Assembly: GCA_045600445.1 (NCBI GenBank)
Contig: JAZRXZ010000021.1
Location: 42,577 to 106,576 of the forward strand
Source: Bacteroidales bacterium
GTDB taxonomy: Bacteria; Bacteroidota; Bacteroidia; Bacteroidales; UBA3663
Length of the DNA stretch: 64,000 nt
Reading direction: 5' to 3'
Shown here: positions 20,412 through 53,210 of the stretch, one piece after another
How positions within the stretch are numbered: the stretch's first letter is position 1
How the letters are laid out: the number at the start of each line of letters is the position of its first letter
The notes under the pieces: model-generated
Seen by the model: the letters and a program-made list of their open reading frames with translations, nothing else
Databases searched by the model: none
Told to the model about the DNA's origin: nothing
Translations under genes and position numbers: made by a program

Positions 20412-21605
20412 TCAGTATCCAATCGGAATCTCGTAAATCACCTCATCATAGTCTTCGACCGTTGGGACGAAGAGCGAACCTGTACCTTCTTCGACCGGGA
20501 TATCTGGCATCTCTATTTCACTGCAGTCAATAACTACGGTGATGATGCCACCGTGCGCCTGTTTGTGGCACTGGTCGGTGACGTCGAAGGTATAAGTCTT
20601 CTCTGTGCCATTACGGAAACTGAGATCGACCATCAACTGATTGATCAAATCTGTGCGAGAACCATTGTACTGATGACTTGGCGCGTCAGAATAAGAAGCC
20701 ATGTCGCACATACCGAAGGTAGTAAGCATACTGCCGATGATGTCTGCAGGCTTTCCTTCATAGTTCATACCCGTCTTATATCGAGTATTGAAATAAACCA
20801 TGGCAGGATTCATGCCAGTATGACCTGTGTTGACATCCACACTGCTGGCCACTGACGAGAGGGCTGCATTACCAGAAGTACCGGTGACACGACCATCATT
20901 ATTTACGAGAATGACCTGCACGAGGTAGATATAAACCAATGGATTGAGCTCACAGTCGATATGCTTGACCCAGCACTTCTCCTCTTCATCGTAATAGTCA
21001 TAATCTTCCATGCGACGAGAGATATAGATATCACGTGGATAGGTAGAGTAGAAGATTTCTGGCTGGTTGAAGAGCGCGATGATAGCACGACTTGCATCTT
21101 CATCCTTCTTACCACGCGAGAATCCTCGGGTGACGGTGGTAGAAGCCTGGACTGAAAGCGGATCGGACTCGTCGATGGTCAATACCTGCGAGCCGTCTTC
21201 ACTATCGATATTACTCCAGATCAGAAGATCGTAATAGCCGAACTGATAAGAGCGACGGAAACGGTTTCCGAAGATGGTAAAACCATCATAGCTGACAGGT
21301 CTTCCTCCTGGTTGATCACCAAGATAGTGTCGGCGCACCTCAAAGTTGGTTGGCTGAGGATAGGTGATCTTACCGAAAAGCTCCTCGTCTTTTTGGTCCC
21401 AACTGTAATACCAACGATGTTCCCAATCGATATCGAGGTTCCAGACGACTTCAATATCGGTAATGATGGCAGGGACATCGACCAAAACCTCTTCTGCCGG
21501 CAACTTCAGCGGTGGCTCAATGCACGACTGGAAAGTGAAGAGTGAAGAGCAAAGGGCGAAAAGGGCCATCAGGAGATGGGTGGCTTTAAGTATCATCTTT
21601 TTCAT
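20412..21605 (-). CDS. Lipoprotein, candidate pilus anchor or assembly subunit (Mfa2/FimB-like or DUF5119-like; family unresolved)
   Basis: 397-aa ORF with lipobox TFQSCIEPP. It lacks the early T-R-A site seen in all ten downstream lipoproteins. It lies second in the operon, and its start overlaps the upstream stop by 4 nt (21602-21605). Confidence 0.5.
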   Translation of the reverse strand: MKKMILKATHLLMALFALCSSLFTFQSCIEPPLKLPAEEVLVDVPAIITDIEVVWNLDIDWEHRWYYSWDQKDEELFGKITYPQPTNFEVRRHYLGDQPGGRPVSYDGFTIFGNRFRRSYQFGYYDLLIWSNIDSEDGSQVLTIDESDPLSVQASTTVTRGFSRGKKDEDASRAIIALFNQPEIFYSTYPRDIYISRRMEDYDYYDEEEKCWVKHIDCELNPLVYIYLVQVILVNNDGRVTGTSGNAALSSVASSVDVNTGHTGMNPAMVYFNTRYKTGMNYEGKPADIIGSMLTTFGMCDMASYSDAPSHQYNGSRTDLINQLMVDLSFRNGTEKTYTFDVTDQCHKQAHGGIITVVIDCSEIEMPDIPVEEGTGSLFVPTVEDYDEVIYEIPIGY

Positions 21606-23083
21606 CGTGCATCTCCTTTCTTTGCTGACTTGTTACGACGATAGAGGATATCGTAGGTGATCTGGATACCCAGGTTGGTAGGGCCGAACCAGACGAACTG
21701 ATGGTTGCGCTCCTTGAAGTTTGAGGCTGAACCGAGGTAATCATAGTAATAATCGCCATCGATCTCTCCTGAGAGCGGATTGCCATAGACGTATGGATCG
21801 TAGCGTGTGATATAAGCTCCTACGGCGGCCATGAACTCAAGGCGCCAGTTGCCGCGCTTGCTGATCGGCATCACATATCCGACAGAGAGGCCTGCACCTC
21901 CACCCTCACCTTGCCAGCCTTTGGTCTTGCTCAGGCCGATGCCGTATTTGCCGCCTTGTGCATAAAGACCAGCATAAGCGCCGAGGAATTCGCCTCCTCC
22001 ACGGAAGTAGCGACGGAGCTCGAGCTGAATGTCGCGCCACTGCCAGAACTTCTGCTGGCTCCACTTGCGGTTAGTACCCCAGGTGATGCCGGCATTGTAG
22101 GTATAATGTCCATCAAGCGGATAATATTCGAGCTGGAGGTTTGGCGAGTAGGCCATACCGAATTGTGGCATGTAGAAGAAGTCGTGCAGCAAGTTGGTGC
22201 GAAGAGCCATGAGATGGCGACGCTCCTGTGGCTGCGGCTGCTGAGGCACCTCAACTGGAGTCTGTACCTGGATGACCGGAGCTTCGATAATTATAGAATC
22301 CGGCTTCTCAATCTTCTCGATTTCGACATTGCTGACCGAGACACTCTCAAAGACTGGAGCCGGACGTGACAGCCAGAGGACAATACGTGCAGTACGAAGT
22401 TCTGGGAAATACTGCTGCTTGAGGCGCGACCATAAACGACCACCATCGAGGCGGCTGAGCTGCAACTTGCATGTCTGTTCGTCACCATTACAAGCATCAA
22501 AGATCTGCTTGACACGAGCATAGTCAACATCATTGCGCTGCTGCATCAGAGTGATGAGGTAAGCATAATCTTCGGTAACACTTTGCACATCCATCTTGAT
22601 CTCCTGTTGAGCGAAAGGTCCACCAGAGAGATCGGTCTTGATGAGAGATTGCAGGGCTTCGGTACGACCCTGTCCTAAGCGACGGTTATTTTCATACGAT
22701 CCCTCTGGCGATGCAGCGCCACGAAGGAAGAGCTGACGGAGCTGGTAGCCTTCACGCTGAAGGAAAGGTAACAGTTCACGATAGGTACGGAAGAAATCGG
22801 AATTGGTATTGATCTCGGTGCGATTGACCTGGAAACGGACACCGACAGCCAAGGCGTTGAAGAGCGAGTCTGTCATCACAGGAGCCTCATCAACATTGTA
22901 ATCAGAAACGATAACGAAAGGATACTCTGCCATGACGGAGTAGCGCTCAGTATCGAGCAAACGCTCAATCTCAGTCATTGAGGATGACAGAACAGCCGCA
23001 CGACATAGTCCTATGGAGAAGACCCATAGGAGAATCGACAAAAACAGGTGCTGTGCGGTTTTCATAAAGATACGATTAAACAA
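21602..23083 (-). CDS. Outer-membrane protein: OmpA-C-like/DUF3868-like module plus C-terminal DUF3575-like beta-barrel
   Basis: 493-aa ORF with a type I signal peptide. The N-terminal half has GAASPEGSYENNRRLGQGRTEAL. The C-terminal half (ALRTNLLHDFFYMP..NLQLEYY..ELRRYF..GAYAGLY..GLSVGYVMPIS..WRLEF) matches my memory of DUF3575 proteins that head Bacteroidales fimbrial operons. Confidence 0.65.
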   Translation of the reverse strand: MFNRIFMKTAQHLFLSILLWVFSIGLCRAAVLSSSMTEIERLLDTERYSVMAEYPFVIVSDYNVDEAPVMTDSLFNALAVGVRFQVNRTEINTNSDFFRTYRELLPFLQREGYQLRQLFLRGAASPEGSYENNRRLGQGRTEALQSLIKTDLSGGPFAQQEIKMDVQSVTEDYAYLITLMQQRNDVDYARVKQIFDACNGDEQTCKLQLSRLDGGRLWSRLKQQYFPELRTARIVLWLSRPAPVFESVSVSNVEIEKIEKPDSIIIEAPVIQVQTPVEVPQQPQPQERRHLMALRTNLLHDFFYMPQFGMAYSPNLQLEYYPLDGHYTYNAGITWGTNRKWSQQKFWQWRDIQLELRRYFRGGGEFLGAYAGLYAQGGKYGIGLSKTKGWQGEGGGAGLSVGYVMPISKRGNWRLEFMAAVGAYITRYDPYVYGNPLSGEIDGDYYYDYLGSASNFKERNHQFVWFGPTNLGIQITYDILYRRNKSAKKGDAR

Positions 23084-23145: not shown

Positions 23146-23181
23146 AAAAAAAAAAAAAATGGAGTTGCCCCCATTTTTTTA
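23146..23181 (-). terminator. A-tract/hairpin/T-tract intrinsic terminator after wecA, containing a 14-nt homopolymer
   Basis: The minus strand reads AAAAAAATGG-gggcaact-CCATTTTTTT followed by further T residues. On the plus strand this is an A14 run at 23146-23159. It lies between the wecA stop and the pilus promoter. Confidence 0.5.
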
Positions 23182-23222: not shown

Positions 23223-23268
23223 GCTTTGTTACGGGAAAAAGCGCAATGTAACAAAGCATGTAACAAGC
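23223..23268. repeat. Inverted repeat GCTTTGTTAC-N15-GTAACAAAGC plus a third copy GTAACAAGC
   Basis: The arms lie at 23223-23232 and 23248-23257 and are perfect over 10 bp. A further direct copy at 23260-23268 abuts and overlaps the wecA stop codon (23268-23270). Confidence 0.7.
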
Positions 23269-24599
23269 TATTCCTGCCGCTCGTCCTTACCGTAAAGTCC
23301 TGATTTCTTATACTCTTCATCCTCCTCCTGCGTCTTAGGAGCAGCATGCTGGAAACGGCGTTCCAAGTGTGCCTTCACATCGAAAGAATCAAGATCCCAA
23401 CCATCTTCAGGAGCATCCAGCCACTCAGAGAAACCTCTGAATCGGCGACGTCGGCCATACAGAGGCTTGACACCGAGCTTGGCCAATCGACGCGAGCTGA
23501 CAGCTGACTGAGCTGAGAAATATCGAAGGAAATAATATGATCCCCACACAAGCGTAATGGAAGAAACGATGACCACGAAGAGCTGCGTCGTGACATCTAC
23601 CTGGAAGACAAACGCCGCGATGATCCAAACCAGGATATTGATTAGATTGATAGAAACGATGCAGAATGAAGTAAACAGATGAGAGAAGCCGACTCGGATA
23701 AAGCCATGGTGTATATGCGTCTTATCTGGTTTGAAAGGACTGCCGCCATGGATCATACGGAACGTCATCACACGCAAAGTATCGAACACCGGCACACTCA
23801 GAGCGGCCAAGGCAAATGCAGCCATGTTGGCTTTACCCAAGCCATCGAAATAGTGATATGAAGAGTCGCTACGTATGATACTGATTGTAAACCAGGAAAG
23901 CATGGCACCCATCATCATCGTACCTGCATCACCCAGGAACATACGAGAGCGGATGCCAAACACATTGTGTACAAAGAACGGTAGCAATGCACCCATCATA
24001 GCAAAAGCCAGACATGCATTAGAGACGTCTCCTGCAACGAGGAACACCACACCATAGATAAAGGAGCAAAGGATGCAAAGTCCTGAAGACAGGCCATTTA
24101 CACCATCGATCATATTGATGGCATTGATAATACCGACACTACAGAGAACAGTCAATGGCACACCGATGTCCCAACTAAAACTATCTATTCCCAGGAAGCC
24201 ATGCAATGAGTCTATACATCCATTCGTCGAATAGATAATACAAAGAGTGATCAACGTCTCGATGACAAGACGGACCAAAGGTGTCAGTCCTAAGATATCA
24301 TCAATAGCGCCGACATAGAGCATTACACAGATCACCAGAAAAACCGGCAGGAGATCTCTTGCGATTGGCAATCCGACAATTGAATAGTAGGCGACAGAAA
24401 CCATCAGACCCATGGTCAATCCCCAGAAGACCGCAATTCCTCCCATGACAGGGATTGGGTCTTTCTGCAATTTTCTTGCATCCGGGTTATCCACCAGATT
24501 CTTCACCTTGGCAATCTTCAGAATCTTGAAATAGACCCATCTCGCCGTATAGACAGCGATGAAAATTGTCACAAGCACATGCAGATACAAATACTCCAT
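23268..24599 (-). CDS. wecA: Undecaprenyl-phosphate HexNAc-1-phosphate transferase (WecA/MraY family, GT4-type initiating enzyme)
   Basis: 443-aa polytopic ORF with VDNPDARKLQKDPIPVMGGIAV, GAIDDILGL and NAINMIDGVNGL motifs. An ~80-aa charged C-terminal tail follows the last TM segment. Confidence 0.85.
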   Translation of the reverse strand: MEYLYLHVLVTIFIAVYTARWVYFKILKIAKVKNLVDNPDARKLQKDPIPVMGGIAVFWGLTMGLMVSVAYYSIVGLPIARDLLPVFLVICVMLYVGAIDDILGLTPLVRLVIETLITLCIIYSTNGCIDSLHGFLGIDSFSWDIGVPLTVLCSVGIINAINMIDGVNGLSSGLCILCSFIYGVVFLVAGDVSNACLAFAMMGALLPFFVHNVFGIRSRMFLGDAGTMMMGAMLSWFTISIIRSDSSYHYFDGLGKANMAAFALAALSVPVFDTLRVMTFRMIHGGSPFKPDKTHIHHGFIRVGFSHLFTSFCIVSINLINILVWIIAAFVFQVDVTTQLFVVIVSSITLVWGSYYFLRYFSAQSAVSSRRLAKLGVKPLYGRRRRFRGFSEWLDAPEDGWDLDSFDVKAHLERRFQHAAPKTQEEDEEYKKSGLYGKDERQE

Positions 24600-24611: not shown

Positions 24612-26492
24612 TTAATGATTGACGTAAGTTTTCTCTACCGGATAAGTGTACCAGTTCCAGTAGTCCATCTGAGTCACCTCTTCACTCCAGGACTTAAAGT
24701 CTTTATATGCATCCGTGATCTTCACTCCTTCTCTTGGCCAATTCCAGTAGTCAGCTACAAGTATTGCCTCTGGCATCACACCAGGGGATTCTGGCAGGCG
24801 TAAAACGTCCGTACACTCCATACAGTCACCTCTCATCACTTCTATGTAGAAGCGACGAGCATCATTGGCCATCGTATATTCTGACAGCCAAGGGACATCG
24901 GCGATATCCTTCCCCTTCACAGTCATCTCACCAGACAGCGTATTAACCTTGTCCAGATTCTCAGAGTTACCTGTCAGCAACGCGTGCATCTCACCGATTA
25001 CGACGTCACCATCCGGTCCATCATAATGCAGATACATGCGGTCTTCTGTACCGCAAGCCATCACCTTCACATTGCACGTATGGTTCTCATAATCAGGAGT
25101 CAGATAAATCACCGCATCATTAAAGTCGAAGTCGGCCTCACGATGCATATCTTCGTAGGCGATGGTCCATGGCAGGCTTGAAATCGTAGGATCGTCAGGA
25201 TTATCGATATCCGGGTTGATGACATCGGGCAACACCATGTCCATATCGGTAGCAGTCATACCGAAGACGATATCATTACAGTCAAGATCTCCACCGTCGA
25301 AGATGTTCTCCATTCCCATGAAAGTAAATTCAGGGAACTCATGGATCCAGCTTCGGTGCGCTTTCTTGCCAGAATAAGAGTAGTTAAATGCCTGTGCCGA
25401 GAAGTTATAACCAGTATACTTTTCTGGGAAGATATTATCAGGCATACCCAGTTTCGTGATCAGATTAAACTGCTCCATGCTCCTTTCCTCGTCCAGACGA
25501 AGATAGAAACCGATATGCATTCCCACCGGCACATCCACCACAAAGGTCAGGCCTCGGATACGCGACACCTGTGTTCCCATTCTCTCCCATACCAGAATAG
25601 AATTATAAGCATCATCGTTACGTCTGGCGACATTCGGCAGCTTCGTACCATCTCCAGGATCATCCTTTAAATCGAAGTTCGAGTCATACCAGACATTCGG
25701 AAAGAGGGTCGCGTTGAACGTTTTATAAGTGCTATTGAGCATATATTGCGTCTTGGCCATTCCATCCAGATAATCGTATCTCTGGACCTCTGCAATATCG
25801 ACCAGCTTCGTATCACTATATGTATTAGGCGAATGATAGTAATAACCTAAAGTATGTGGCTCATTAGAAGAACCAAAACCAGTAATAAAAGTGACTTCGA
25901 AACGACCGTTCGACACCAGCTCGTAATTGACAATCTCATTTCGCGTGCTGGCATCGACACTCTCCATACTTACCAAGCTCATCACGTCGCCCCATACTTC
26001 CTCCTTGATCTCATTATAATAGGCTCCACCTAAGATACTATATCCATAGAGAGACGGATCAAAGGCAGATCGGGTCGTAGCATGGCTGGACTGCAGATTC
26101 ACATCCACAGTCTGCTCCTGACTTCCATTGAGTATGATCGATTTCGTTACCTTCATCTGCCTGCTGACAGCAGTCAACCCTACACGGTTTCCCATTCCCT
26201 GTGGCAAAGTCAGTGTCACCATCTGAGAACCGACACACTCCTTGACATCGTAGATCACGGTATTTGCCTGACCTACCGAATAAGCCTGGACCTTCACACG
26301 GTCCTCACTGCCAGCCGAAACTTTCACATGCAGTCTCACTGCAGTTTCCCAATATTGGACAGTGTCGATGCTACTTCCTAATATCTTCTGGAAGTCTTTC
26401 TCGACATCCTCCCAGTATGAAGCCATATCGCTCTCGCTACAGCCAAACAGCAGCAGGCTACACATTATATAATATATGACGTGTCTTCTCAT
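24612..26492 (-). CDS. LruC-domain (DUF4842-like) lipoprotein
   Basis: 626-aa ORF with lipobox LLFGCSESD. It has two D-x-D-x-N-D motifs (GGDLDCNDIVFGM, EADFDFNDAVIYL) typical of the LruC domain as I remember it. The start overlaps the upstream stop by 4 nt. Confidence 0.6.
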   Translation of the reverse strand: MRRHVIYYIMCSLLLFGCSESDMASYWEDVEKDFQKILGSSIDTVQYWETAVRLHVKVSAGSEDRVKVQAYSVGQANTVIYDVKECVGSQMVTLTLPQGMGNRVGLTAVSRQMKVTKSIILNGSQEQTVDVNLQSSHATTRSAFDPSLYGYSILGGAYYNEIKEEVWGDVMSLVSMESVDASTRNEIVNYELVSNGRFEVTFITGFGSSNEPHTLGYYYHSPNTYSDTKLVDIAEVQRYDYLDGMAKTQYMLNSTYKTFNATLFPNVWYDSNFDLKDDPGDGTKLPNVARRNDDAYNSILVWERMGTQVSRIRGLTFVVDVPVGMHIGFYLRLDEERSMEQFNLITKLGMPDNIFPEKYTGYNFSAQAFNYSYSGKKAHRSWIHEFPEFTFMGMENIFDGGDLDCNDIVFGMTATDMDMVLPDVINPDIDNPDDPTISSLPWTIAYEDMHREADFDFNDAVIYLTPDYENHTCNVKVMACGTEDRMYLHYDGPDGDVVIGEMHALLTGNSENLDKVNTLSGEMTVKGKDIADVPWLSEYTMANDARRFYIEVMRGDCMECTDVLRLPESPGVMPEAILVADYWNWPREGVKITDAYKDFKSWSEEVTQMDYWNWYTYPVEKTYVNH

Positions 26493-28201
26493 AGCTTTAT
26501 CACTTTACCATTCTCAACTACCCAGCTGATTCGACCATCCAGGGCATCCATCACCGTCCGCAGGTAATCAGTCTCAGGTGACGAACCTGCCCGATTCAGG
26601 AATTTTCTGGCATCCTTCATTCGCCTTGTCTGAATCGAAGCCACAGCGGCGTTATAGTTAGCGATCTCATTCTCCGGATACTGACGTGCGGCAATGACCA
26701 ATGCATCATACCAGGCCTCAGATCCTTCTGGCACACAGAGTGCCACCTGATACATCTCCTCCACGCTAAGAGCTTCCGGATGCGTGTATATCAGTCGCTT
26801 TGCGTCCACCACCTCATACTTCTGTACCTTATATTCTATCAGATAGTCCGTATGGCGCAGACCTGGATAGATGTTTTCATACAACCACTTATAAGGCTTG
26901 CCGCCACCTACCTTCTTCAGTACCTCCTCCTTATGATCAGGATTCAAGTCACTGTCGATGACACGCAGCAGCTCCTCCCGATTACCCATTACCGGCTTAT
27001 CCACCTTATCGATACGCTTGCCACGTTCTGCCTTGAGCGGTTCACGCTCAGGATCCAGATGGTCACACACATCGACGAACGCTCTCAGGTTCTCCCAGTC
27101 TTCAGGAGTAGATTGCGTGGCGAAGATGCCGTCTTCGAACTGATATACCTGTTTCAGATAATTCACCAGAGCTGCCGTACGACCTGTCGCCAGTCGGGTA
27201 TTATTGCTATAAGGACTCTCCGGAGAAGCATATCCATGCAGGCTGATAGAGAGGATCTGAATGCTCTTGTCGAACAAAGCGCTATCCACAGAAGCGTTGA
27301 TTCTCCTCAGCTCATCCTTATTCTTTCGGTAATCCGGATAAATCACAGTCTCATTCACGGGGAAGTCCAGATAAGCAGTTCCTGAGATGAACCTCACCTT
27401 CTCGTCTTCCTTCGCAGGTAATAGCAACGGCAGATCAGGCAGTTCTCGCAGTCGGCGCGAATAGACGACTGGCGTCGTAACCGTACGTGACGTCTTCACC
27501 ACCTCCCTCAACATATAAGTGATACCAATACTGAGATTGGTGCGCATATCCCAAGGGAAATCTGCATTCTCCACGCCATTGAAATTGTCCGACACCACCG
27601 TGTGAGACAGTTCAAGTCCCAACTTCAGATTACTGTCTAACCGATAAGTTGCCGTCAGTCCGGCTCTGACACCGAAACACAGCTGGCTTTTCTTGCTGAA
27701 TGGATCCGTATAAGAGAGATAGATATCCTTCGGGAACTTATAAGTATAGAGGCCACCCACACCCGCGAAGGCCTTCAGATTGAAACTCGGCACTTCTTTA
27801 CGGTCTTTCTTACGGTTCCTGAAAGCATCCGAGAGGTCGAACGTCACATCGCCGAACAGCTCGACATCGTTCCAGTTCCACGGCTCTCCATTCTCACATT
27901 CGCGCACATTACGGCTCCTATTATTGTCGATGCCCAAAGCCAGACGCCACCCCCACAATGGAGATAGCTCCTTGCCAATACCGGCGAAAGCTCCGAAAGA
28001 AATCGGATGAATCGTAAACTCCGACCATGGCATATTCTCATTGGCAGACTTATTGATACCACCATAGAACTGTAGATAGTAAGCATCCACACCCCTCAGT
28101 GCCAGAGAGTCATTTCCATGAAGAGGCTTAGCATATCCAGACACCGCCGAACATACTATCATCAAAAGAATTACGATCCTCTTCTCCAATTTATAAATCA
28201 T
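26489..28201 (-). CDS. Outer-membrane beta-barrel protein with OmpA-C-like/DUF3868-like module and helical C-terminal region
   Basis: 570-aa ORF with a signal peptide. The N-terminal ~240 aa show alternating beta-barrel-like segments (WGWRLALGIDN, LKAFAGVGGLYTY, GVRAGLTATYRL, NLSIGITYML). These are followed by HGYASPESPYSNNTRLATGRTAALVNYLK and a helical tail. There is a 5-bp gap after wzc. Confidence 0.6.
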   Translation of the reverse strand: MIYKLEKRIVILLMIVCSAVSGYAKPLHGNDSLALRGVDAYYLQFYGGINKSANENMPWSEFTIHPISFGAFAGIGKELSPLWGWRLALGIDNNRSRNVRECENGEPWNWNDVELFGDVTFDLSDAFRNRKKDRKEVPSFNLKAFAGVGGLYTYKFPKDIYLSYTDPFSKKSQLCFGVRAGLTATYRLDSNLKLGLELSHTVVSDNFNGVENADFPWDMRTNLSIGITYMLREVVKTSRTVTTPVVYSRRLRELPDLPLLLPAKEDEKVRFISGTAYLDFPVNETVIYPDYRKNKDELRRINASVDSALFDKSIQILSISLHGYASPESPYSNNTRLATGRTAALVNYLKQVYQFEDGIFATQSTPEDWENLRAFVDVCDHLDPEREPLKAERGKRIDKVDKPVMGNREELLRVIDSDLNPDHKEEVLKKVGGGKPYKWLYENIYPGLRHTDYLIEYKVQKYEVVDAKRLIYTHPEALSVEEMYQVALCVPEGSEAWYDALVIAARQYPENEIANYNAAVASIQTRRMKDARKFLNRAGSSPETDYLRTVMDALDGRISWVVENGKVIKL

Positions 28202-28206: not shown

Positions 28207-30618
28207 TCAGCTATTTGATAAATACGCGAAGTTATAACGGTCATAGTAACCGTAAGCATATTGGTTACCATATCGGTTGTCCAAAGCCGAGCCATTCACA
28301 ATGACAGCCATGTTCTTGAACGCACCCTTCTGGAAATCCTCCTCCAGAGTACCGAGCATATCTCTCTGGAAAAGGCCTACGCGCAGCACGAACAGCGTTC
28401 TGTCTGCCAGACGCTCAATGATGCGGGTATCAGCCATATAGCTGGCAGGCGGACAGTCAATGAAGATATACTCAAATTCCTTTCGCAACTGCGCGATTAG
28501 ATCCTTGAAGCGGTCACTTGACAGCAACTCGGTCGGGTTCGGAGGTCTCACACCCACAGGGAGGAAGAACAAGTTCGGGTACTGCTCCAGGCCTACAATT
28601 GCCTCATGAATATCATCTACCTGTCCTCCCAGATAATTAGCGATACCGACCGTCGGACGATTGACATACGAAGAAGCCGAGGTGTGTCTGAGGTCACCGT
28701 CAATCACCAACGTCTTATGGTTACGGATGGAGAACGCTGCAGCCAAGTTTGCCGAAACAAACGTCTTGCCAGAGTTCGGATTATAGGAAGCCGTGATAAT
28801 CACAGAACCTTCCTCCCTCTGTTGGCTCTGTGTCATAAACTCCACATTGGTACGTAGCAGACGGAAAGACTCATTGAGCAAGTCATGCCCATTTTCCTTC
28901 ACCAAGATTGATCTCCGTGCCACCTTGGTAAGCTTCGGTTTTTCATTCATCAAGCGAGGGACAAGAGGATCCGAATCTTCAGAATAGAAAGGAATATCGC
29001 CAAGCACAGGAACACTTATCACACCATCCAGATCCCTTGAGCCTCGAATACTTCCATTCATGGCATTCTTAGTGAATACAAGGCCGAGAGGGATCAAAAG
29101 TGCCAAAGCCAAAGCGCTCAAAATGACATTCTTATTATTCGGAGAAACAGGTGTCAGACTAGCATGCGGATTATCGAGCATCTGACGATTTCTAGCCACG
29201 TATGATTCTGACAAATCAATCTTCTCCTTCTTCTGGAGCAAATACATATATAGTTCCTCCTTGATCTTCTGCTGACGTTCTATCGACATCAGATATTTGG
29301 CCTGATCCGGATTAGATTCAATCTTCTCCGTCGCCTTATTTCCATACTGCTCGTAAGTATCCAGCTTCAAAGAAATCGTATTTATCTCATTTCTCAGCGA
29401 CTGAATCACGCTCTCTCGAAGACCATTCAGCTGCTGCTCCATATTCTCAATCAATGGATTCTGTGCTGAAGTATATCTTAAGTGGCTCTTCAAACTGAGC
29501 AACTGAGAATTGTAATCCTGGAGTTGGCTCTGTATCGAAGTATTAGTAATGCCAGAATTGACAGGAAGCAGCTCATGTGACTTACTCTTGGTATTCAAAA
29601 TATCCAAGATATACTGAACAACAGACAATTCGTTGTTTAAGCTCAGAATCTGATCATCTGAGCGACTATACTGACTGATATAAAGACTACCTGCAGTATT
29701 TACGTCAGTGATGGCATTCGTACTCTTAAACTGCGAAATATCTGTATCAATAGCATTCAGTTCTTTTTCAATTATCTGCAATCGTTCTACAATAAACGAC
29801 GAAGCTGCACGAATCAATTGTTTCTGGTCTTCAACACCGAAATCAGAATAAACCTCAGCAATGGTGCGTAAAACGGCATCTGCGCGTAAAATGTTCTGTT
29901 CGGTATATTTCAGGTCAATAATAGTTGATTCTTTATCAGGAATACTTGTCTTCAATCGATTTTTTATTTCATCTACAGCTTCATTTATTGGCCTATTAAC
30001 AACCTGATATTTTTGACGGACAATTGTTCTAAATTCGAAATAATCAGATTTTTTGAAAGACATCACTCCTATTGGAGTCTGAACAGAACTCCCATCAAGT
30101 TTTACCGTTATAGGATCTGTTCCACCTGAAGTATTGCTAAAATTAGATAATATATATTGCTCTGGAGATTCAATAAATAATTCAAATGAAGATTGTTTTT
30201 TCTCATCATCTGGTGTAAAAGTCAGCACAAAAGGAAGTTCTTCGGTATAAGGAGTAAGCACCTTAAAAGACTTACGGGCATAATATACAAGGTTAAGATT
30301 CAATCTTCGCGCGACTTCAGTCAGTACGTCTCTAGACTTAATCTCTCTTACCTCATTCTTTAAGTTGGTAGTCTTTAACTCCAACCCAAGTTCCTTAAAC
30401 TCTTCTCCGAACTCTGCATCAGAGTTTTTACCTCCTTCTTCTTTAATCAAAACAGAAACCTCTCTAACAAAAGTTTTAGGCGTGATTAGAAGATAAGCAG
30501 CCGCACCACCCATACAAATCATAAAAGATATGGCGAACCATACCCAATGATACATGCACAGATAGCCAAGATCCGACAACGAAATAAACTCCTCCTGTTT
30601 CTTCTTTTTCGTAGCCAT
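28207..30618 (-). CDS. wzc: Polysaccharide co-polymerase / tyrosine autokinase (Wzc, PCP-2a type)
   Basis: 803-aa ORF with an N-terminal TM segment, a long coiled periplasmic region and a second TM segment. It has Walker A NPNSGKTFVSANLA and VIDGDLR. The C-terminal tail is Tyr-rich: NRYGNQYAYGYYDRYNFAY. Confidence 0.85.
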   Translation of the reverse strand: MATKKKKQEEFISLSDLGYLCMYHWVWFAISFMICMGGAAAYLLITPKTFVREVSVLIKEEGGKNSDAEFGEEFKELGLELKTTNLKNEVREIKSRDVLTEVARRLNLNLVYYARKSFKVLTPYTEELPFVLTFTPDDEKKQSSFELFIESPEQYILSNFSNTSGGTDPITVKLDGSSVQTPIGVMSFKKSDYFEFRTIVRQKYQVVNRPINEAVDEIKNRLKTSIPDKESTIIDLKYTEQNILRADAVLRTIAEVYSDFGVEDQKQLIRAASSFIVERLQIIEKELNAIDTDISQFKSTNAITDVNTAGSLYISQYSRSDDQILSLNNELSVVQYILDILNTKSKSHELLPVNSGITNTSIQSQLQDYNSQLLSLKSHLRYTSAQNPLIENMEQQLNGLRESVIQSLRNEINTISLKLDTYEQYGNKATEKIESNPDQAKYLMSIERQQKIKEELYMYLLQKKEKIDLSESYVARNRQMLDNPHASLTPVSPNNKNVILSALALALLIPLGLVFTKNAMNGSIRGSRDLDGVISVPVLGDIPFYSEDSDPLVPRLMNEKPKLTKVARRSILVKENGHDLLNESFRLLRTNVEFMTQSQQREEGSVIITASYNPNSGKTFVSANLAAAFSIRNHKTLVIDGDLRHTSASSYVNRPTVGIANYLGGQVDDIHEAIVGLEQYPNLFFLPVGVRPPNPTELLSSDRFKDLIAQLRKEFEYIFIDCPPASYMADTRIIERLADRTLFVLRVGLFQRDMLGTLEEDFQKGAFKNMAVIVNGSALDNRYGNQYAYGYYDRYNFAYLSNS

Positions 30619-30623: not shown

Positions 30624-31448
30624 TTATTTTGATAAGAAGGTGATCAGAGTCATCACGAATGATGCCATCGATACCCAGAAACCAGGTGTATTAAATGTAT
30701 TACCATTCGGATTTGCCTCACGTTTACGCTTGGCATTCGGTGCCACATAAACAATATCATTCTGCTGCAAATAGAAAACTGGAGAATAATACAGATCGGC
30801 CTTGCTGCAAAGATCCACCTCGTATGTATATTCTTCATTGTCTTGCGTACGGAGTACTAATACACGATCTCTCCTACCATCAATAGTCAAATCTCCAACT
30901 GCCGCAATTGCATCGAGCAAAGTGAAATGATCCTTCTTAATATCAACATGTCCAGGATTATTTACCTCGCCGAGCACATCAATACCCATATTAACATATT
31001 CCACTGTCACAAGAGCATCTGTTACCAATTCTCGTTCCCGCAGACGCTGAGATATATAATCAGCCACCTCATTTCTTGTTTTTCCTATCACAGATATCTT
31101 TCCCAAGATCGGGAACGCAATATCACCCTGCTCATCGACAGTATAGGCAACGACTTGTCCTCCACCGCCTCCGCCATTACCTGCCATTGTTTCCGGAGAA
31201 ACAGTTCCTCCTAAAGTCTGATTACTGCCAGCTTTCAGAGAGAACTGAGAGGCCAACATTGGGTCTGCGCTATGCACGATGATATTAATCTTGTCATCCG
31301 GCTTCAGGCGCAAAAACTGCTTCTCCTGACCAAGGATTCCCTGTAGTTCTGCCGCGTCCTGAAAATAATCGATATTCAACGGAGCACTACAAGACACCAG
31401 CAAGATGGCAAATATTATATAGCAATAGATTTTATGCATTAAGCCCAT
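30624..31448 (-). CDS. wza: Polysaccharide export outer-membrane protein (Wza family)
   Basis: The lipoprotein-like signal MGLMHKIYCYIIFAILLVSCSAP is followed by Poly_export/SLBB-like sequence (LKPDDKINIIVHS.., GKISVIGKTRNEVADYI). Start chosen at Met18 (31448). The longer track ORF (31499) would overlap the upstream gene. Met21 (31439) is also possible. Confidence 0.8.
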   Translation of the reverse strand: MGLMHKIYCYIIFAILLVSCSAPLNIDYFQDAAELQGILGQEKQFLRLKPDDKINIIVHSADPMLASQFSLKAGSNQTLGGTVSPETMAGNGGGGGGQVVAYTVDEQGDIAFPILGKISVIGKTRNEVADYISQRLRERELVTDALVTVEYVNMGIDVLGEVNNPGHVDIKKDHFTLLDAIAAVGDLTIDGRRDRVLVLRTQDNEEYTYEVDLCSKADLYYSPVFYLQQNDIVYVAPNAKRKREANPNGNTFNTPGFWVSMASFVMTLITFLSK

Positions 31449-31459
31449 ATAGAATACAT

Positions 31460-32242
31460 TTAGAAAAGATATTCTTTCAACTTCAGCACATATCTGCATG
31501 CCTGAATCAGTTTATTAGAATATACACCATTCTTCTTGAAAGCTCGCTTATGATCTTCAAGGATTCGCAAATGAGACTTGATGCCACTGGTAGAAGCGCC
31601 ACCAGTACGCATAGTTACAAAATCCTTATCGACGTACTGCGTTTTGATTTCTCCCTTATAAATGACACGCAGTAGGAACTCAAAATCGGCAGCTACCTTG
31701 AATGAATTATCATAATATGACCCATCCTCTTCTCGGAATCTCTCGTATGCTGTTTTCGTCATATAAAAAGAAGGATGAGCAGGCATGAAGCCCATAATCA
31801 TCCTTTTTCGAGTGAATTTCTCACTACTATAGTAACGAATGCATAAACCTAAATCTTTTGGCATGACATAATGAATGTCTCCATAAACAGCATCCAGAGT
31901 TGGGTCTGCTTCAAATTTATCTACCACGGTAGCAAGCACATCATCACTGGTATAGAAATCGTCCGAATTCAGAATGCCAACCACATCACCCGTAGCCATG
32001 GCAATTCCCTTATTCATGGCATCATAAATACCCTTATCAGGTTCTGAGATCCATCGGAGCTGAGATCCCTTATCCTGATATCGTTGCACATATTCCTTGA
32101 TGACGCTTACTGTCTCATCTTTTGATGCGCCATCGACTATGATATGTTCAATATTAGCACACCCCTGCTTCAAAACACTTTCCAGTGTATCTGCCAGAGT
32201 CTTTGCACTATTATATGTTGCCGTAATAATTGATATTGTCAT
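31460..32242 (-). CDS. Family 2 glycosyltransferase (WcaE-like)
   Basis: 260-aa ORF with ISIITATYNSAKTL, IIVDGASKDETV and GILNSDDFY motifs. Confidence 0.8.
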   Translation of the reverse strand: MTISIITATYNSAKTLADTLESVLKQGCANIEHIIVDGASKDETVSVIKEYVQRYQDKGSQLRWISEPDKGIYDAMNKGIAMATGDVVGILNSDDFYTSDDVLATVVDKFEADPTLDAVYGDIHYVMPKDLGLCIRYYSSEKFTRKRMIMGFMPAHPSFYMTKTAYERFREEDGSYYDNSFKVAADFEFLLRVIYKGEIKTQYVDKDFVTMRTGGASTSGIKSHLRILEDHKRAFKKNGVYSNKLIQACRYVLKLKEYLF

Positions 32243-46858: not shown

Positions 46859-47153
46859 ATGCGATTAATTAATGTCTGTGGTGTAGTGGTGGACATAAAT
46901 CCTATTTTTCGAAACTTTTTCTCCACCGCTCAATAATTCCCGTCACCATCCGGACCCCCTCGGGAATTTTTGCATTTCCGCAGAAAAGTTAAAAAACATC
47001 TCCACCATCTCCACCATTTATCAGTGAGAAGGGTTTCCAATTCGGAACGCTAATTCTTAGCTTTTTCTTCCAACGACAAAAAACGATCAAAGTCGCTGAT
47101 ATACGTCTGATCCAGAATTCAAGGTTTGTCATAATATATTGCTAGCCTATAAA

Positions 47154-47576
47154 TTAATGCTGCTTCTCCGCATATTCCCTCAACTTCATCAAAAGTCCTA
47201 CGATGATGGAGATGATGAGGACGCCAGAGGTGTTGTAGATGAGGTCATCGACCTCGAAAGTGCCGGTACAAGTATAGTATTGAAGGACTTCTATCGAGAG
47301 AGAACAAAGGAAGCCGATCAGGGTGACGAGCAGGAAATGCCAACGGAGACAGGTGAGCAGGAAGCCGAGAGGCATGAGAAGGATAATATTCAGAATGACT
47401 TCTCTCAGGATATACTGGCCATGAGAGATATAGGGATACTGCTGGATGTCCTTGATGGTCTGGAATGGCACTAAGCAGATGCGTGGTTCTGACAATGGCT
47501 CACGACCGAAGACGGTATAATAATAGACGATGGCAAGGAAAAGAACCGTCAAAATCAGGATAAATTTCTTGAACAT
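47154..47576 (-). CDS. VanZ-like membrane protein
   Basis: 140-aa ORF with 4 TM segments. NIILLMPLGFLL and SIEVLQYY..GTFEVDDLIYNTSG are typical VanZ motifs. Confidence 0.7.
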   Translation of the reverse strand: MFKKFILILTVLFLAIVYYYTVFGREPLSEPRICLVPFQTIKDIQQYPYISHGQYILREVILNIILLMPLGFLLTCLRWHFLLVTLIGFLCSLSIEVLQYYTCTGTFEVDDLIYNTSGVLIISIIVGLLMKLREYAEKQH

Positions 47577-47581
47577 GGGGT

Positions 47582-48052
47582 CTATCGCATTTTCTGATTA
47601 GCACCACGTTTTTTGCGAAGCTCCTGACGCAAGAGGTTGTAGTACTCTGGTCCTGCTTTACTTTTCGTGCCCCCCACTGTAGTACCGAGTTTTCGCTGGA
47701 AGAAGCGCCAGAGTGAATCATCGCTGGCATATCCACAGGCATGAGCGACTTCAGTAAGGGTTGCATCTGGATGCTCCTGAGTGTACTGCTGCACCTGATT
47801 GATGCGATACTGCTGAATCACGTCAATCAGTTTCATTCCCAGATCGAGCTGGATGGCACACGCTAATCTGCGTGCGTCGACATCGAGATATTCTGCGATT
47901 TCCTTACTCTCGATCAGGTGCGTCTGAAAGAGTGCATGTGCCAACGCGTTAACGATCGGTGAGGCTGTGTAGGTTTCAGCATTACCTGGATTGTAGTCAA
48001 TAACCTGCTGAAAAGTAGCAACTGGAAGGTAAGGATGTTTTTCTTTTATCAT
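47582..48052 (-). CDS. AraC-type helix-turn-helix protein (DNA-binding domain only)
   Basis: 156-aa ORF. The HTH_18-like region is SKEIAEYLDVDARRLACAIQ...TLTEVAHACGYASDDSLWRFFQRKLG. It has no sensor or receiver domain. Confidence 0.7.
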   Translation of the reverse strand: MIKEKHPYLPVATFQQVIDYNPGNAETYTASPIVNALAHALFQTHLIESKEIAEYLDVDARRLACAIQLDLGMKLIDVIQQYRINQVQQYTQEHPDATLTEVAHACGYASDDSLWRFFQRKLGTTVGGTKSKAGPEYYNLLRQELRKKRGANQKMR

Positions 48053-48250
48053 AATCCTGACATTAGGTTTGTGATGTTAGTATTCTGTATTTGTGAAGCT
48101 GACATTACGTACGTGTTGTCAGCTTTCTGTATTCGTGAAGCTGACATTACGAACGTGTTGTCAGCTTTCTGCATCTGTGAAGCTGACATTACGTACGCGT
48201 TGTCAGCTTTTTGCATCCGCGAAGCTGACATTACGTTCGTGATGTCAGCA
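48053..48250. repeat. Tandem repeat array B: four 42-bp units, each with palindrome GCTGACA-N12-TGTCAGC, plus one degenerate unit
   Basis: Units start at 48095, 48137, 48179 and 48221. The 7-bp arms are identical in all four units while loops and linkers vary. Loops contain ACGTACGT, ACGAACGT or ACGTTCGT. The degenerate copy is at 48053-48094. The SDR stop codon (48231-48233) lies inside the last hairpin loop. The array abuts the AraC start codon at 48052. Confidence 0.9.
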
Positions 48251-49262
48251 TCCACGGGATAAGATGCTCAAAAATCATTTTCAGATCATGTTTCGGCTGC
48301 CATCCGAGCTCAGTGAGCTTGGCAGATGAGAGCCGGAGACGGGATTCGGGAGCATAACCTTGCGTGTCATCGGCTTCGACACGCACCTGGATGGCTGGTG
48401 CGAAGTTGTCACGAAGGTATTCGGCCATCTGACGAGCAGAAATGTAAGTTGACTCATTGGCTACATTATAAGCCTCAGCATCAGCGCCTCTCAGCAAGAT
48501 GGTCAAGATGGCATCAATGGCATCAAGCGTATAGCAATAAGGCCGGGCAGAAGTTCCACAGGTGTGCAGGACAATGTCTTCTCCCAATGCGCCCCTTCGC
48601 GCGAACTGGTTGATGACGCGGTTGTCATCGAATGCCACTCCTACCCCAGTGGTCTGCGTCAGTCGGGCAATCTTAGCCGGTACGCCATATTGATGTACAT
48701 AGAGGCAACAGAGATTCTCGGCAGCGAGCTTGGCCATCGGATAAGAGCTGCGAGGACTCAGCGGATCGGTCTTTCCCAGCATGTTTTCGGTCACTGCGAT
48801 GCTATCATCGGTGATCTGGCCATATACCTCCAATGAGGATAGGAACACGAAACCCTTAACCGGATGCTGGAGTGAGTAGCGAAGCAGTGCGTCAGTACTA
48901 TAATATATAAAGGTGGAGGTTTCGACGGCATGCTCCACGAAATAGCGGCTTCCCGTCGGGGCAGCGCAGTGGATGATATAGTCTACATTGCCCAAGGAGC
49001 TATAGTCAAAGGTGCAGAGATCGCACTCTACGAGTTCTATCCGCCTCAGTTCGGACTCATCGAACATCGACAAGGCCTTGCTCCTATTTCTGACTGGTGC
49101 GATGATGCGAATATCCTGATTCAGAGCCAACAGGCAATGCACAAGCATAGAACCGATAAGGCCTGTGACTCCTGTAATCAGGAAAGTGCGACCTGCCAAA
49201 TCGCTACCATGCTGAAATTGGCTTGCAAAGTCTTGTTTATCTTTCTGGAGAAGTGGATGCAT
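48231..49262 (-). CDS. NAD(P)-dependent extended SDR (sugar-nucleotide epimerase/dehydratase/reductase)
   Basis: 343-aa ORF with the Rossmann motif FLITGVTGLIGSMLV and the catalytic YPMAK (YxxxK). Confidence 0.8.
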   Translation of the reverse strand: MHPLLQKDKQDFASQFQHGSDLAGRTFLITGVTGLIGSMLVHCLLALNQDIRIIAPVRNRSKALSMFDESELRRIELVECDLCTFDYSSLGNVDYIIHCAAPTGSRYFVEHAVETSTFIYYSTDALLRYSLQHPVKGFVFLSSLEVYGQITDDSIAVTENMLGKTDPLSPRSSYPMAKLAAENLCCLYVHQYGVPAKIARLTQTTGVGVAFDDNRVINQFARRGALGEDIVLHTCGTSARPYCYTLDAIDAILTILLRGADAEAYNVANESTYISARQMAEYLRDNFAPAIQVRVEADDTQGYAPESRLRLSSAKLTELGWQPKHDLKMIFEHLIPWMLTSRT

Positions 49263-49273
49263 TTAAGGAAGAA

Positions 49274-50452
49274 TCAAATCTTTACACTAAACACGGATTC
49301 TATGACTGGAGCCATATCAAAATAGCGATACTCAGCTAGACGACCGCCAAATATGACATTCTCTTCTCTTTCTGCTAATACTCTATACTGATCAGCCAAA
49401 TCTGCATTTCGAGAATCATTCACAGGATAATAAGGTTCCATACCAGGCTTGTATTCTTCTGAATACTCTTCGCTGATCACCGTGGTCGGGTTTTCATAAA
49501 CCTCCTGTCCAAATTTCTCAAAATGTTTATGCTCAATGACACGGGTGAATGGGACTTCATGGCTTGTATAATTTACGACAGCATTGCCTTGGAAATTAGG
49601 AGTATTCTCTATTCGAGTCTTAAAACTGACGGTACGCCAATCTAAATGTCCCAGCTGATAGTCAAAGTATTCGTCAAGAGGACCTGTATAGACAAGTTGT
49701 TTTGCAACACTCTGCCAATGGTCTTTTAATCTAGAATCGGTCTTAATTGCCCAAGAATTATCTACTAAATGAATATTATTGCCGAAGAAATCGCAATTAG
49801 TGATACAGTCAATGCCATCAAGCAACCCCTCAATCAACTTATTATAGCCTCCGATAGGAACCCCTTGATATTTATCATTGAAATAGTTGTTATCGAATAC
49901 CAAGCGGACAGGTAAGCGATTGATAATGAATGCTGGCAAGTCCTTACACTCTCTACCCCATTGCTTTTCGGTATATTCCTTTATAAGTTTCTCAAAAATA
50001 TCTTTACCCACCAAGCATAAAGCTTGTTCTTCAAGGTTCTGAGGTTTCCTTCCTTCCAATCTGGCTATAGCTTCTGCCCTCTGCTCTTCAAGTCTCATTT
50101 CTGCCTCTTGGGGTGTAGTAACTCCCCAAAGTTGGTTGAATGTATTCATATTAAATGGCAGATTATACAGCTCGCCTTTATAATTTGCAATGGGACTATT
50201 GGTATATCTATTGAATGGAACGATTGAATTCACAAAATCCCATACGTCCTTATTTGATGTATGGAAAATATGTGCACCATACTTATGAACATTGATTCCC
50301 TCAAGTCTCTCGCAATAAACATTGCCTCCTAAATGAGGTCGCCTGTCTATCACAAGACACTTCTTTCCTAATTTAGTTGCCCTATAAGCAAAAGTTGCAC
50401 CAAAAAGGCCAGAACCGACAATCAAATAATCATACGACATGCTATTTGTCAT
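49274..50452 (-). CDS. glf: UDP-galactopyranose mutase
   Basis: 392-aa ORF with YDYLIVGSGLFGATFA, IDRRPHLGGNVY and HKYGAHIFHTSN, which is classic Glf. The start overlaps the upstream stop by 4 nt. Confidence 0.9.
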   Translation of the reverse strand: MTNSMSYDYLIVGSGLFGATFAYRATKLGKKCLVIDRRPHLGGNVYCERLEGINVHKYGAHIFHTSNKDVWDFVNSIVPFNRYTNSPIANYKGELYNLPFNMNTFNQLWGVTTPQEAEMRLEEQRAEAIARLEGRKPQNLEEQALCLVGKDIFEKLIKEYTEKQWGRECKDLPAFIINRLPVRLVFDNNYFNDKYQGVPIGGYNKLIEGLLDGIDCITNCDFFGNNIHLVDNSWAIKTDSRLKDHWQSVAKQLVYTGPLDEYFDYQLGHLDWRTVSFKTRIENTPNFQGNAVVNYTSHEVPFTRVIEHKHFEKFGQEVYENPTTVISEEYSEEYKPGMEPYYPVNDSRNADLADQYRVLAEREENVIFGGRLAEYRYFDMAPVIESVFSVKI

Positions 50453-51468
50453 GCTTTTCTTAACTTTGCTCTCAACTTTGATTGTATTGAATGAAGGTAC
50501 AAAACCAAAGGTGTCAAAACTGGAATATCTGCCCTCCAGAAAGATACAATCGGGAATGAGCGATACTTCAGAACAAGCCTGTCATCATTCTTTATCTCAG
50601 GATATAAAGATGTGATCTGCCTATCAAACGCTCTGAATTCTCTGTATGAATAATAATGGAAAATGAAGAACTCCTGATAAGCGTACTGTATCTGCTTTAA
50701 CAGAAGGTTATACAAACAAGTTTTTCTAATCTTTTCTCCCTCGTATTCTGACCAGATCTTACCCAATGATAACATCATTGCCGCTAATGAGCTGAATGAT
50801 TTACTCTTAGAAATGCGGCTTATCGTCTGATCCTCACGACCACGAAGATAGCAATAGAATGGTTGTGGAATAAAATACACTGATCTTATTGCGACCATTG
50901 GCTTAGCAACCCACTCGTTGTCAGAGTAGGAAATACCTTCCGTTTGACAATAATTTATATCTAAAAGTAAACTACGACGATAAGCGAAATGATGTATGAA
51001 AAAAGACTGGAATGAGGGAGCGAACTCTTCAAATGAAATTGTACATCTCTCTTTGACTGATATTCTCCATTCGGATGTTTTCTTATATTCAGGATCCACT
51101 ATCGTCATATAGTTCAATACAAGATCGACATCCAATGTTTCAAGTTCTTTCAAGTATTGCTCAAATGATGATGTATCGAAATAATCGTCAGCATCAAGGA
51201 CCTTTACATATTTTCCTTTGGCAAGGGGAAGAGCTGCATTTATACAACTTCCATAATTGCCATTTTTTTTGCAGATTATAGAAAAAAGACTTGGATACTG
51301 ATCGTGAAATCCCCGAGCTATCTGCAAACTTCCATCCGTTGCACCGTCAATGACAATCAATACCTCCAATTGCTCCAGTAAACTAGTATCTAAAACGATT
51401 AAACTAGAAAGACACTTATTGAGGTACCTTTCAACATTGTAGGTAGGGATAATTATTGATAAAAGCAT
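50449..51468 (-). CDS. Family 2 glycosyltransferase
   Basis: 339-aa ORF with LSIIIPTYNVERYL, VIDGATDGS and KVLDADDY. Confidence 0.8.
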   Translation of the reverse strand: MLLSIIIPTYNVERYLNKCLSSLIVLDTSLLEQLEVLIVIDGATDGSLQIARGFHDQYPSLFSIICKKNGNYGSCINAALPLAKGKYVKVLDADDYFDTSSFEQYLKELETLDVDLVLNYMTIVDPEYKKTSEWRISVKERCTISFEEFAPSFQSFFIHHFAYRRSLLLDINYCQTEGISYSDNEWVAKPMVAIRSVYFIPQPFYCYLRGREDQTISRISKSKSFSSLAAMMLSLGKIWSEYEGEKIRKTCLYNLLLKQIQYAYQEFFIFHYYSYREFRAFDRQITSLYPEIKNDDRLVLKYRSFPIVSFWRADIPVLTPLVLYLHSIQSKLRAKLRKA

Positions 51469-51489
51469 AATAGTTGTAGAAGAAATTAA

Positions 51490-52461: not shown

Positions 52462-52466
52462 AGATT

Positions 52467-53204: not shown

Positions 53205-53210
53205 ACGAAC

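Follow-up and report, generated by a model that had tools for sequence, protein, structure and literature searches.

Bacteroidales capsules shape gut colonization, phage sensitivity, and immune interactions, and to our knowledge no retention or outer-membrane accessory factor has been described for them. According to a 2025 review, it is understood only in part how Gram-negative bacteria retain their capsules; Wzi, the one known lectin in this role, is mainly proteobacterial, is dispensable for polymer synthesis, and retains the polymer at the surface in the group 1 capsule systems of Escherichia coli K30, Klebsiella, and Acinetobacter (PMC12220298). A 64,000-nucleotide stretch of contig JAZRXZ010000021.1 from a Bacteroidales bacterium (assembly GCA_045600445.1), hereafter the window, encodes two envelope proteins of 570 and 626 amino acids, named O570 and O626, in an operon with wza and wzc. 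Like Wzi, O570 is a predicted accessory protein of the outer membrane whose gene accompanies wza-wzc in a Wzx/Wzy locus, and the role proposed below for the pair is the same. Wzi, however, consists of one 18-stranded barrel plus a helical bundle in the periplasm, whereas the window encodes an 8-stranded barrel and a lipoprotein as two separate proteins, and Wzi has no sequence or fold relation to either of them.

Other described systems offer partial parallels. In group 4 capsule loci (GfcB/GfcC/GfcD) and in the PgaA/PgaB and AlgE/AlgK systems, a barrel and a lipoprotein, with or without TPR domains, are likewise encoded with export genes (PMC9603273), but the barrels of these systems have 16-18 strands or more, act as pores, and share no homology with O570 or O626. 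The porins that partner Class 3 OPX proteins (OPX, outer-membrane polysaccharide export), WzpX/S/B and PgaA-like, also have 16-18 strands (PMC9603273), whereas O570 is 8-stranded and OmpA-sized. In its two-domain architecture and folds, O570 is closest to OmpA and OprF, from which it differs in a Ser that replaces a motif Asp, an 80-residue helical insert, an added C-terminal TPR-like domain, surface loops that are conserved instead of variable, and the position of its gene in a capsule locus. O626 has D-x-D-x-N-D loops in common with Leptospira LruC and with the DUF4114 domain of Myxococcus PilY1.1, as well as a lipoprotein anchor in common with LruC, but just these short C-terminal motifs match, and the rest of the protein is without an annotated relative.

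The best explanation of the analysis presented here is that O570 and O626 constitute a dedicated outer-membrane accessory pair, inherited together, that belongs to a single family of Wza/Wzc-dependent (Wzx/Wzy) polysaccharide loci found in Bacteroidales of the gut and rumen. The open literature on DUF4842/DUF4114/LruC, on DUF3868/DUF3575, and on Bacteroides and Prevotella capsule accessory proteins yielded no description of the pair. Neither group of families has a polysaccharide-export role in the literature searched, in agreement with a preliminary description of the window, which knew of no such role for LruC-domain proteins.

Linkage of the pair and its genomic context

Full-length homologues number more than 1200 for O570, named 'hypothetical protein' by NCBI, and 386 for O626, named 'LruC domain-containing protein'. 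Linkage was assessed in two surveys of loci recruited by conserved peptide patterns; this recruitment is biased to closer relatives, and the frequencies below hold for the samples rather than for all Bacteroidales. The first survey, seeded with O570 patterns and drawing on one genome per species, yielded 70 loci with full-length or nearly full-length O570, one of them cut by a contig end. An O626 homologue is directly adjacent on the same strand in 67 of the 69 assessable loci. The reciprocal survey of metagenome contigs, seeded with O626 patterns, gave 80 loci, and O570 is adjacent in all 76 that can be assessed, the other four being contig-cut. This adjacency is far from chance. The median intergenic gap is 4 bp where O570 precedes O626 and 9.5 bp where the order is reversed. 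Carriers include Prevotella/Segatella, Alloprevotella, Prevotellamassilia, Phocaeicola plebeius, Parabacteroides, and other Bacteroidales.

Clustering and Pfam annotation of the neighboring open reading frames (ORFs) identified all neighbors as polysaccharide genes, encoding Ugd, UDP-GlcNAc 2-epimerase, WecG, glycosyltransferases (GT), Wzy, flippases, Wza, Wzc, and WecA. The loci are all of the Wzx/Wzy type, and three layouts recur. Layout A reads [wecA]-wza-wzc-O570-O626-[O626']-flippase-GT2, and layout B reads GT2-Wzy-GT1-WecG-Ugd-epimerase-O570-O626-[O626'] after further upstream genes. In layout C, FAD-oxidase-GFO-flippase-[CotH]-GT-O626-O570-Ugd-[736-aa paralogue], the order of the pair is reversed; a sub-type of this layout reads wza-wzc-O626-O570-DegT. 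The accessory gene set of layout C is unusual for a polysaccharide locus. In L016, L017, L023, L029, L034, L038, L044, and many other loci, it includes a CotH kinase-like protein that also has an F5/8 type C domain, an FAD-oxidase/Fe-S protein of ~950-990 aa, a GFO/IDH/MocA oxidoreductase, and often histidine-kinase and Cache/HAMP sensors.

The gene wzc lies directly upstream of O570 in 38 of 137 classifiable loci. For layouts B and C, ten whole genomes were searched for wzc, and in eight of them the copy most identical to that of the window sits upstream of the pair on the same contig and strand, at a distance of 10.9-12.6 kb in layout B and 21-24 kb in layout C. These pair-linked copies are 37-44% identical to the window Wzc, as against 25-31% for the others; in the remaining two genomes, wzc and the pair are on separate contigs. 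O570 is present in one copy per genome versus two to three copies of wzc. The window genome, which is 78.6% complete, has one of each, the wzc of the window being its sole full-length copy. The claim in the preliminary description of an envelope pair tied to Wza/Wzc polysaccharide loci is borne out both by the adjacency counts and by this occurrence of wzc in cis.

In a tree of O570 from 135 loci, the layout labels require 4 changes, compared with 63 in shuffles, such that the layouts are clade-specific. Layout C forms a single clade, and direct adjacency to wzc arose at least three times, in the main A clade, in the window clade, and in a sub-clade of C. The combination of clade-specific layouts with constant adjacency implies that the two genes stayed together through the rearrangements. 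The window clade consists of the window, L003 (85% identity), and L002 (65%). A wecA gene follows the pair just in this clade and in L059, and the exact order wzc-pair-wecA is found in the window and L003, whereas the L002 sequence breaks off before a wecA could be seen. Other loci have the pair behind wecA-wza-wzc, 11-24 kb downstream at the opposite end of the locus, or in reversed gene order. The preliminary description presented the pair as wedged between wzc and wecA. Its location within Wza/Wzc loci holds across the surveys, but the exact order is confined to the small clade of the window. Random placement relative to wza and wzc, named there as the outcome that would speak against a connection, is contradicted by both surveys and by the context analysis. 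The pair is kept together in polysaccharide loci through every rearrangement, and the wzc-wecA wedge is a local variant.

Additional lipoprotein genes accompany the pair in part of the sample. A second, old paralogue of O626 (~29% identity) is present in 21 loci, and the copy adjacent to O570 is always the O626 ortholog; tandem second copies were seen in L011, L012, L014, L021, L051, L068, and others. Some loci contain a third paralogue of 736 aa, in which the match to DUF4842 is fuller (E 1.9e-21). This pattern suggests that the LruC-like paralogues around O570 are an old, maintained gene family. Among 300 genomes drawn evenly from the order, no other full-length O570 was found, just relatives of its C-terminal module, and the distribution of the O570 family is patchy.

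Predicted architecture of O570, O626, and Wza

All genes and features of the operon are on the minus strand of the window. O570 (26489..28201) has no significant match in Pfam or NCBIfam, where it returns weak TPR_19/TPR_16 matches only, and it does not match PF00691 even at E<=10. An AlphaFold2 (AF2) model built from 49 homologues (mean pLDDT 85.7) comprises a signal peptide, an 8-stranded β-barrel (residues 42-230; 27512..28078) with four predicted surface loops, a disordered linker, an OmpA-like domain (residues 263-462; 26816..27415), and a TPR-like helical domain (residues 463-556, with modelled helices at 464-554; 26534..26815). The OmpA-like domain has β-α-β-α-β-β topology, interrupted by a helical insert at residues 369-448, and carries the motif HGYASPE...NNxRLAxGR. 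The top Foldseek match in the Protein Data Bank (PDB) is a full-length model of E. coli OmpA (E 2.5e-8). The barrel matches 8-stranded OmpA, NspA, Ail, OmpX, and OmpW structures, with E 1e-6 to 6e-4 for 1bxw, 1qjp, 9fzc, NspA, Ail, and OmpX, and the C-terminal domain matches the Acinetobacter baumannii OmpA, Salmonella OmpA, and OprF domains (3td3, 4rha, 5u1h) at E ~1e-3 with TM scores of 0.61-0.69. Foldseek returned no match to Wzi. The earlier label of 'beta-barrel/OmpA-like' for the 570-aa protein is well founded in the modelled barrel and the OmpA matches.

Homology to the OmpA family can also be traced by way of intermediates that do match PF00691, namely the wider relatives and a paralogue in the same genome, C81, which is 36% identical to O570 residues 243-380 and passes the PF00691 threshold at 27.9 bits. 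Alignment with the six PF00691-matching domains of the window genome, five of them canonical and the sixth C81 with a variant motif, shows that Asn334, Leu337, and Arg341 of the N-x-x-L-S-x-x-R-A motif are kept in O570. The variant motif, (Y/A)(A/S)SP(E/D)...NNxRLxxGR with Ser for Asp, is common to O570, C81 (L081, 769-2490), the neighboring pilus-operon protein described below, and ~480-aa DUF3868/OmpA/TPR proteins (L071-L079). Small barrels usually vary in their surface loops. In O570, the four loops predicted to be extracellular are as conserved as its strands (majority fraction 0.66-0.84, compared with 0.34-0.61 for the periplasmic turns), a pattern that points to a conserved partner contacting the outer face of the barrel.

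When 1.84 billion representative proteins were searched with a profile, O570 fell within a much larger family. At E<=1e-3 there are 4365 relatives; the stricter E<=1e-30 leaves 891 representative clusters. Just about ten representative clusters have the full fused architecture. Nearly all other relatives are ~480 aa long and match the C-terminal 300 residues of O570, in a DUF3868 + OmpA-like + TPR arrangement; among 45 wider-family representatives, matches at E<=0.001 were obtained to DUF3868 in 31, to PF00691 in 20, and to each of the three commonest TPR families in 13-14. In Muribaculaceae and others, the ~480-aa protein is encoded behind a stand-alone DUF3575 barrel gene, among housekeeping genes (PpiD-like, MetK, RlmN, PdxA). 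DUF3868 proteins have a small outer-membrane barrel either as a partner or as a fused part, and O570, which has the homologous C-terminal module and the YASPE-type motif, swaps the DUF3868 N-terminus for a fused OMP_b-brl-type barrel. It differs further from the DUF3575/DUF3868 pairs in having an LruC-like lipoprotein as its partner and in belonging to a polysaccharide locus rather than a housekeeping or type V pilus context. In the 493-aa DUF3575 protein of the pilus operon next to the locus (window positions 21602-23083), the OmpA-like part comes first and the DUF3575 barrel last, an order opposite to that in O570. By sequence comparison, O570 is a specialized branch of this widespread envelope module, 'small barrel + OmpA-like/TPR', and was recruited to a polysaccharide locus. 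One 1340-aa database protein (P0284), with a Wzc-like AAA_31 + CbiA N-terminus and an O570-like C-terminus, has the form of a Wzc-O570 fusion but probably results from a stop codon missed between neighboring genes, since a cytoplasmic kinase fused to a protein with a signal peptide would not make sense topologically.

O626 (24612..26492) begins with a signal peptide and lipobox, LFGC, followed by the acidic stretch SESD (26439..26492). Cys18 is invariant, the next residue is Ser in 50 of 76 homologues, and Asp or Glu occupies the three positions after that in 38%, 79%, and 37%. The Bacteroidetes lipoprotein export signal, with the consensus SDDDD in B. fragilis, drives surface exposure (PMC5080379), and the resemblance of the acidic stretch to this signal suggests that O626 is surface exposed. 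In the AF2 model (pLDDT 87.2), a seven-stranded Ig-like β-sandwich (residues 48-132; 26097..26351), which is the least conserved folded part (0.50-0.57), precedes a large, β-rich body that is not a barrel. Three acidic Asp/Asn loops of this body are invariant among 50 sequences. The first, W-Y-D-x-N-F-D-x-x-D (residues 268-277; 25662..25691), is a candidate Ca2+ site in which W268, D270, N272, D274, and D277 are invariant. The second, GGDLDCNDIVFG (residues 400-411; 25260..25295), is of the D-x-D-x-N-D type and has invariant G400, D404, C405, D407, and F410. The third, D...DFDFNDAVI (residues 448-462; 25107..25151), overlaps the DUF4114 match at residues 443-464, and its D448, D454, D456, F457, N458, and D459 are invariant. 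The segments G-G-D-x-D-C-N-D (400-407) and D-x-D-F-N-D (454-459) constitute the DUF4114 signature.

Profile matches to O626 are confined to such motifs. DUF4114 (PF13448) scores 33.6 bits against a cut-off of 27, at model positions 61-82 of 85. At residues 573-616 (24645..24776), DUF4842 (PF16130) reaches 25.3 bits (cut-off 22; positions 167-208 of 208), and LruC_dom (TIGR04456) also scores 25.3 bits, under its cut-off of 36 (positions 201-243 of 243). In precomputed annotation, PF16130 is present in about half of the O626 homologues. The name 'LruC-like lipoprotein' given in the preliminary description is therefore sound with respect to the lipobox and the two above-threshold families, but the matches cover C-terminal motifs only and LruC_dom falls below its cut-off; 'LruC-domain' is a loose label for this protein. 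The best match in BFVD, a set of viral predicted structures, is a DUF4114 protein (E 3e-6). The DUF4114 domain of Myxococcus PilY1.1 has been proposed as a Ca2+-dependent exopolysaccharide binder (PMC9109919), a precedent that provides a lead for glycan binding by O626 by analogy, not a test of it. Searches of PDB sequences with both family profiles, O570 and O626, returned just a chance TPR match and one repeat protein.

The Wza of the window (30624..31499), an OPX lipoprotein with Pfam Poly_export and SLBB domains, probably has its true start at ~31436-31448 (MGLMHKIY..., lipobox LVSC); homologues in related loci are 275-305 aa long. Pfam detects no Wza_C in it even at E<=10. Proteins with Poly_export and SLBB but without Wza_C are Class 3 in the OPX scheme (PMC9603273), and Class 3 OPX proteins of Myxococcus need a separate 18-stranded porin (PMC12819527). 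The protein nevertheless ends in a hydrophobic helix, FWVSMASFVMTLITFLSK (30627..30680), a candidate outer-membrane-spanning segment. An equivalent helix of 17-18 residues, x-W-x-S-I-A-S-x-x-x-T-L-x-A-x-x-K/R, is conserved in all 16 Wza proteins compared, which were those encoded beside the pair in the O570-seeded survey. W2 and S4 are invariant, S7 is present in 15 of 16, and position 11 is Thr or Ser; small or polar residues fall at i, i+3, i+7, and i+10, and the amphipathicity of the helix modestly exceeds that of shuffles. These features are compatible with a Wza_C-like membrane-spanning helix, and the segment may represent an unrecognized variant of the outer-membrane-spanning helix. The capsule pore is then probably Wza itself, as predicted from this helix. 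Bacteroidales Wza proteins of ~275-290 aa without Wza_C would be binned as Class 3 OPX, despite the C-terminal helix.

Proposed role in polymer retention and alternative functions

With a probability of roughly 45%, we propose that the pair consists of an outer-membrane/cell-wall anchor and a surface glycan-binding lipoprotein that retain or organize the polymer, a Wzi-like role assembled from unrelated parts. In this mechanism, O570 would be seated in the outer membrane with its periplasmic foot tied to the cell wall and/or to Wza-Wzc, and its conserved surface loops would dock O626. The lipoprotein would be flipped to the cell surface by means of its acidic N-terminal signal, its acidic, probably Ca2+-loaded loops would bind the emerging polymer there, and the two proteins together would retain or organize the exported material.

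Several observations weigh against this proposal. Two loci, L032 and L057, carry O570 without the lipoprotein, and the pair is not beside wza-wzc in about two-thirds of loci. The Asp of the G-x-T-D element in the peptidoglycan-binding motif is replaced in O570 by an invariant Ser326 (HGYASPE), which makes wall binding uncertain; binding of peptidoglycan by O570 is possible. The DUF4114 match in O626 spans just ~22 residues, the whole-chain O626 model has no Foldseek match in the PDB at E<=1e-3, lectins included, and searches of PDB sequences with the O626 profile gave no match of relevance. Finally, the two proteins are fairly conserved (~52% and ~42% identity, respectively) across differing biosynthetic cassettes. 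A lectin specific to one serotype should vary more, and this level of conservation is better matched by a ligand or partner that is itself conserved.

The best surviving alternative, although an unlikely one, is a periplasmic scaffold in which the Wza-Wzc channel is braced or assembled across the cell wall by O570, through its OmpA-like and TPR domains, and by an O626 that faces the periplasm, such that the pair is needed for export itself and not for retention. TPR domains scaffold other polysaccharide secretion systems, as in PgaA, AlgK, and BcsC. The pair co-occurs with one Wzc subfamily, follows wzc directly in the 38 loci noted above, and is translationally coupled there in the window. 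Its Wza lacks a Wza_C match, and OPX proteins of that kind need outer-membrane partners in Myxococcus (PMC9603273, PMC12819527). These points are offset by the position of the pair in most loci, 11-24 kb from wza-wzc at the opposite end of the locus, and by two features that look outward rather than toward the periplasm: the acidic O626 N-terminus, which suggests surface exposure, and the conserved O570 loops on the predicted outer face. In addition, the polymer cannot pass an 8-stranded barrel.

It is improbable, more so than the scaffold, that O626 is a processing enzyme anchored by O570, for example a lyase or hydrolase, dependent on Ca2+, that would trim or release an acidic polymer or determine its length. 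Many exopolysaccharide operons do encode a lyase or hydrolase (AlgL, PelA, PslG, BcsZ). Ugd is encoded beside the pair in half of the loci, and UDP-GlcNAc 2-epimerase plus WecG in many, a gene content that implies polymers containing uronic acid. The large β-rich body of O626, for which there is no known fold match, contains His, Arg, Glu, and Asp residues that are invariant. Against an enzymatic role, no match to a glycoside hydrolase or polysaccharide lyase was obtained in Pfam, NCBIfam, PDB sequences, or Foldseek. The odds are similarly low that the pair is a surface adhesin, nutrient-binding module, or general envelope tether whose regulation is shared with the capsule genes but which has no direct part in making the polymer. 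The occurrence of the barrel + OmpA-like/TPR module in housekeeping and pilus contexts speaks for this possibility, but across ~145 assessable loci and at least four rearrangements the pair is found solely inside polysaccharide loci, separated by few-base gaps from biosynthetic or export genes, in one copy per genome, and in cis with a wzc. The translocation role floated in the preliminary description, which would make O570 the pore, is rejected as unlikely: the 8-stranded barrel is too narrow for the polymer, and all 16 Wza proteins have a possible membrane-spanning helix of their own.

Retention by an anchor and a glycan-binding lipoprotein can be extended to a broader and more tentative proposal, which we regard as rather doubtful at present. 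The pair would be the missing Bacteroidales capsule-retention device, spanning three layers with a wall-associated OmpA-like/TPR foot, a barrel with a conserved face, and a Ca2+-dependent glycan-binding lipoprotein; 'small barrel + YASPE-type OmpA-like/TPR' proteins may more generally be a platform, common in Bacteroidales, to which surface polymers are anchored, capsules in this locus and type V pili in the next operon. As a candidate capsule anchor at the surface of gut and rumen Bacteroidales cells, the pair gives a first functional context to two large families, the DUF3868/OmpA-like/TPR proteins and the LruC/DUF4114 lipoproteins. Single-copy, tightly linked, and in cis with one Wzc subfamily, it is also a concrete knock-out target.

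Operon junctions and flanking genes

The minus-strand gene order in the window is GT2 glycosyltransferase (31460-32242), wza, wzc (28207..30618), O570, O626, and a wecA-like gene (23268..24599). The 803-aa Wzc, a tyrosine autokinase of the polysaccharide co-polymerase 2a (PCP-2a) class, has Pfam Wzz, GNVR, and AAA_31 domains and passes the NCBIfam tyrosine autokinase model TIGR01007 at 124.8 bits (cut-off 108). The 443-aa WecA-like protein is an initiating phosphoglycosyl transferase, GT4 family, that matches PF00953 at E 1.8e-30 and TIGR02380 at 149 bits, under the 326-bit equivalog cut-off. Read directly from the sequence, the wzc/O570 junction is the wzc TGA, 5 nt, and ATG; at the O570/O626 junction, the O570 TGA overlaps the O626 ATG as ATGA; and the O626/wecA junction is the O626 TAA, 12 nt, and ATG. 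The order wza-wzc-outer-membrane protein-lipoprotein-wecA and the gaps of 5 bp, ATGA, and 12 bp had been reported exactly.

A terminator-like hairpin with a 12-pair stem and a following T-run (23153..23180), 3' of wecA, closes the operon and was the sole one with a long T-run in the hairpin scan. A sigma-70 promoter scan is uninformative for Bacteroidales promoters. A 184-bp gap after wecA is followed by the type V pilus operon (DUF3575, DUF5119, Mfa-like fimbrillins). Upstream of wza lies a Wzx/Wzy cassette with LicD, GT2, flippase, GT1s, acyltransferase, and Wzy; its G+C content is 33-42%, and that of wecA-O626-O570 is 44-50%. Farther upstream, behind an HTH_18 regulator, a second glycan module of the ABC-transporter type (47000-61300) encodes an ABC-2 permease, ABC ATPase, IspD-like cytidylyltransferase, GT8, GT2, UDP-galactopyranose mutase, epimerase, and a WecG-GT1 fusion. 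At its upstream margin, the region of glycan genes includes a 782-aa protein with Reg_prop/β-propeller repeats (56995-59343) and a 507-aa ORF without a Pfam match (62330-63853).

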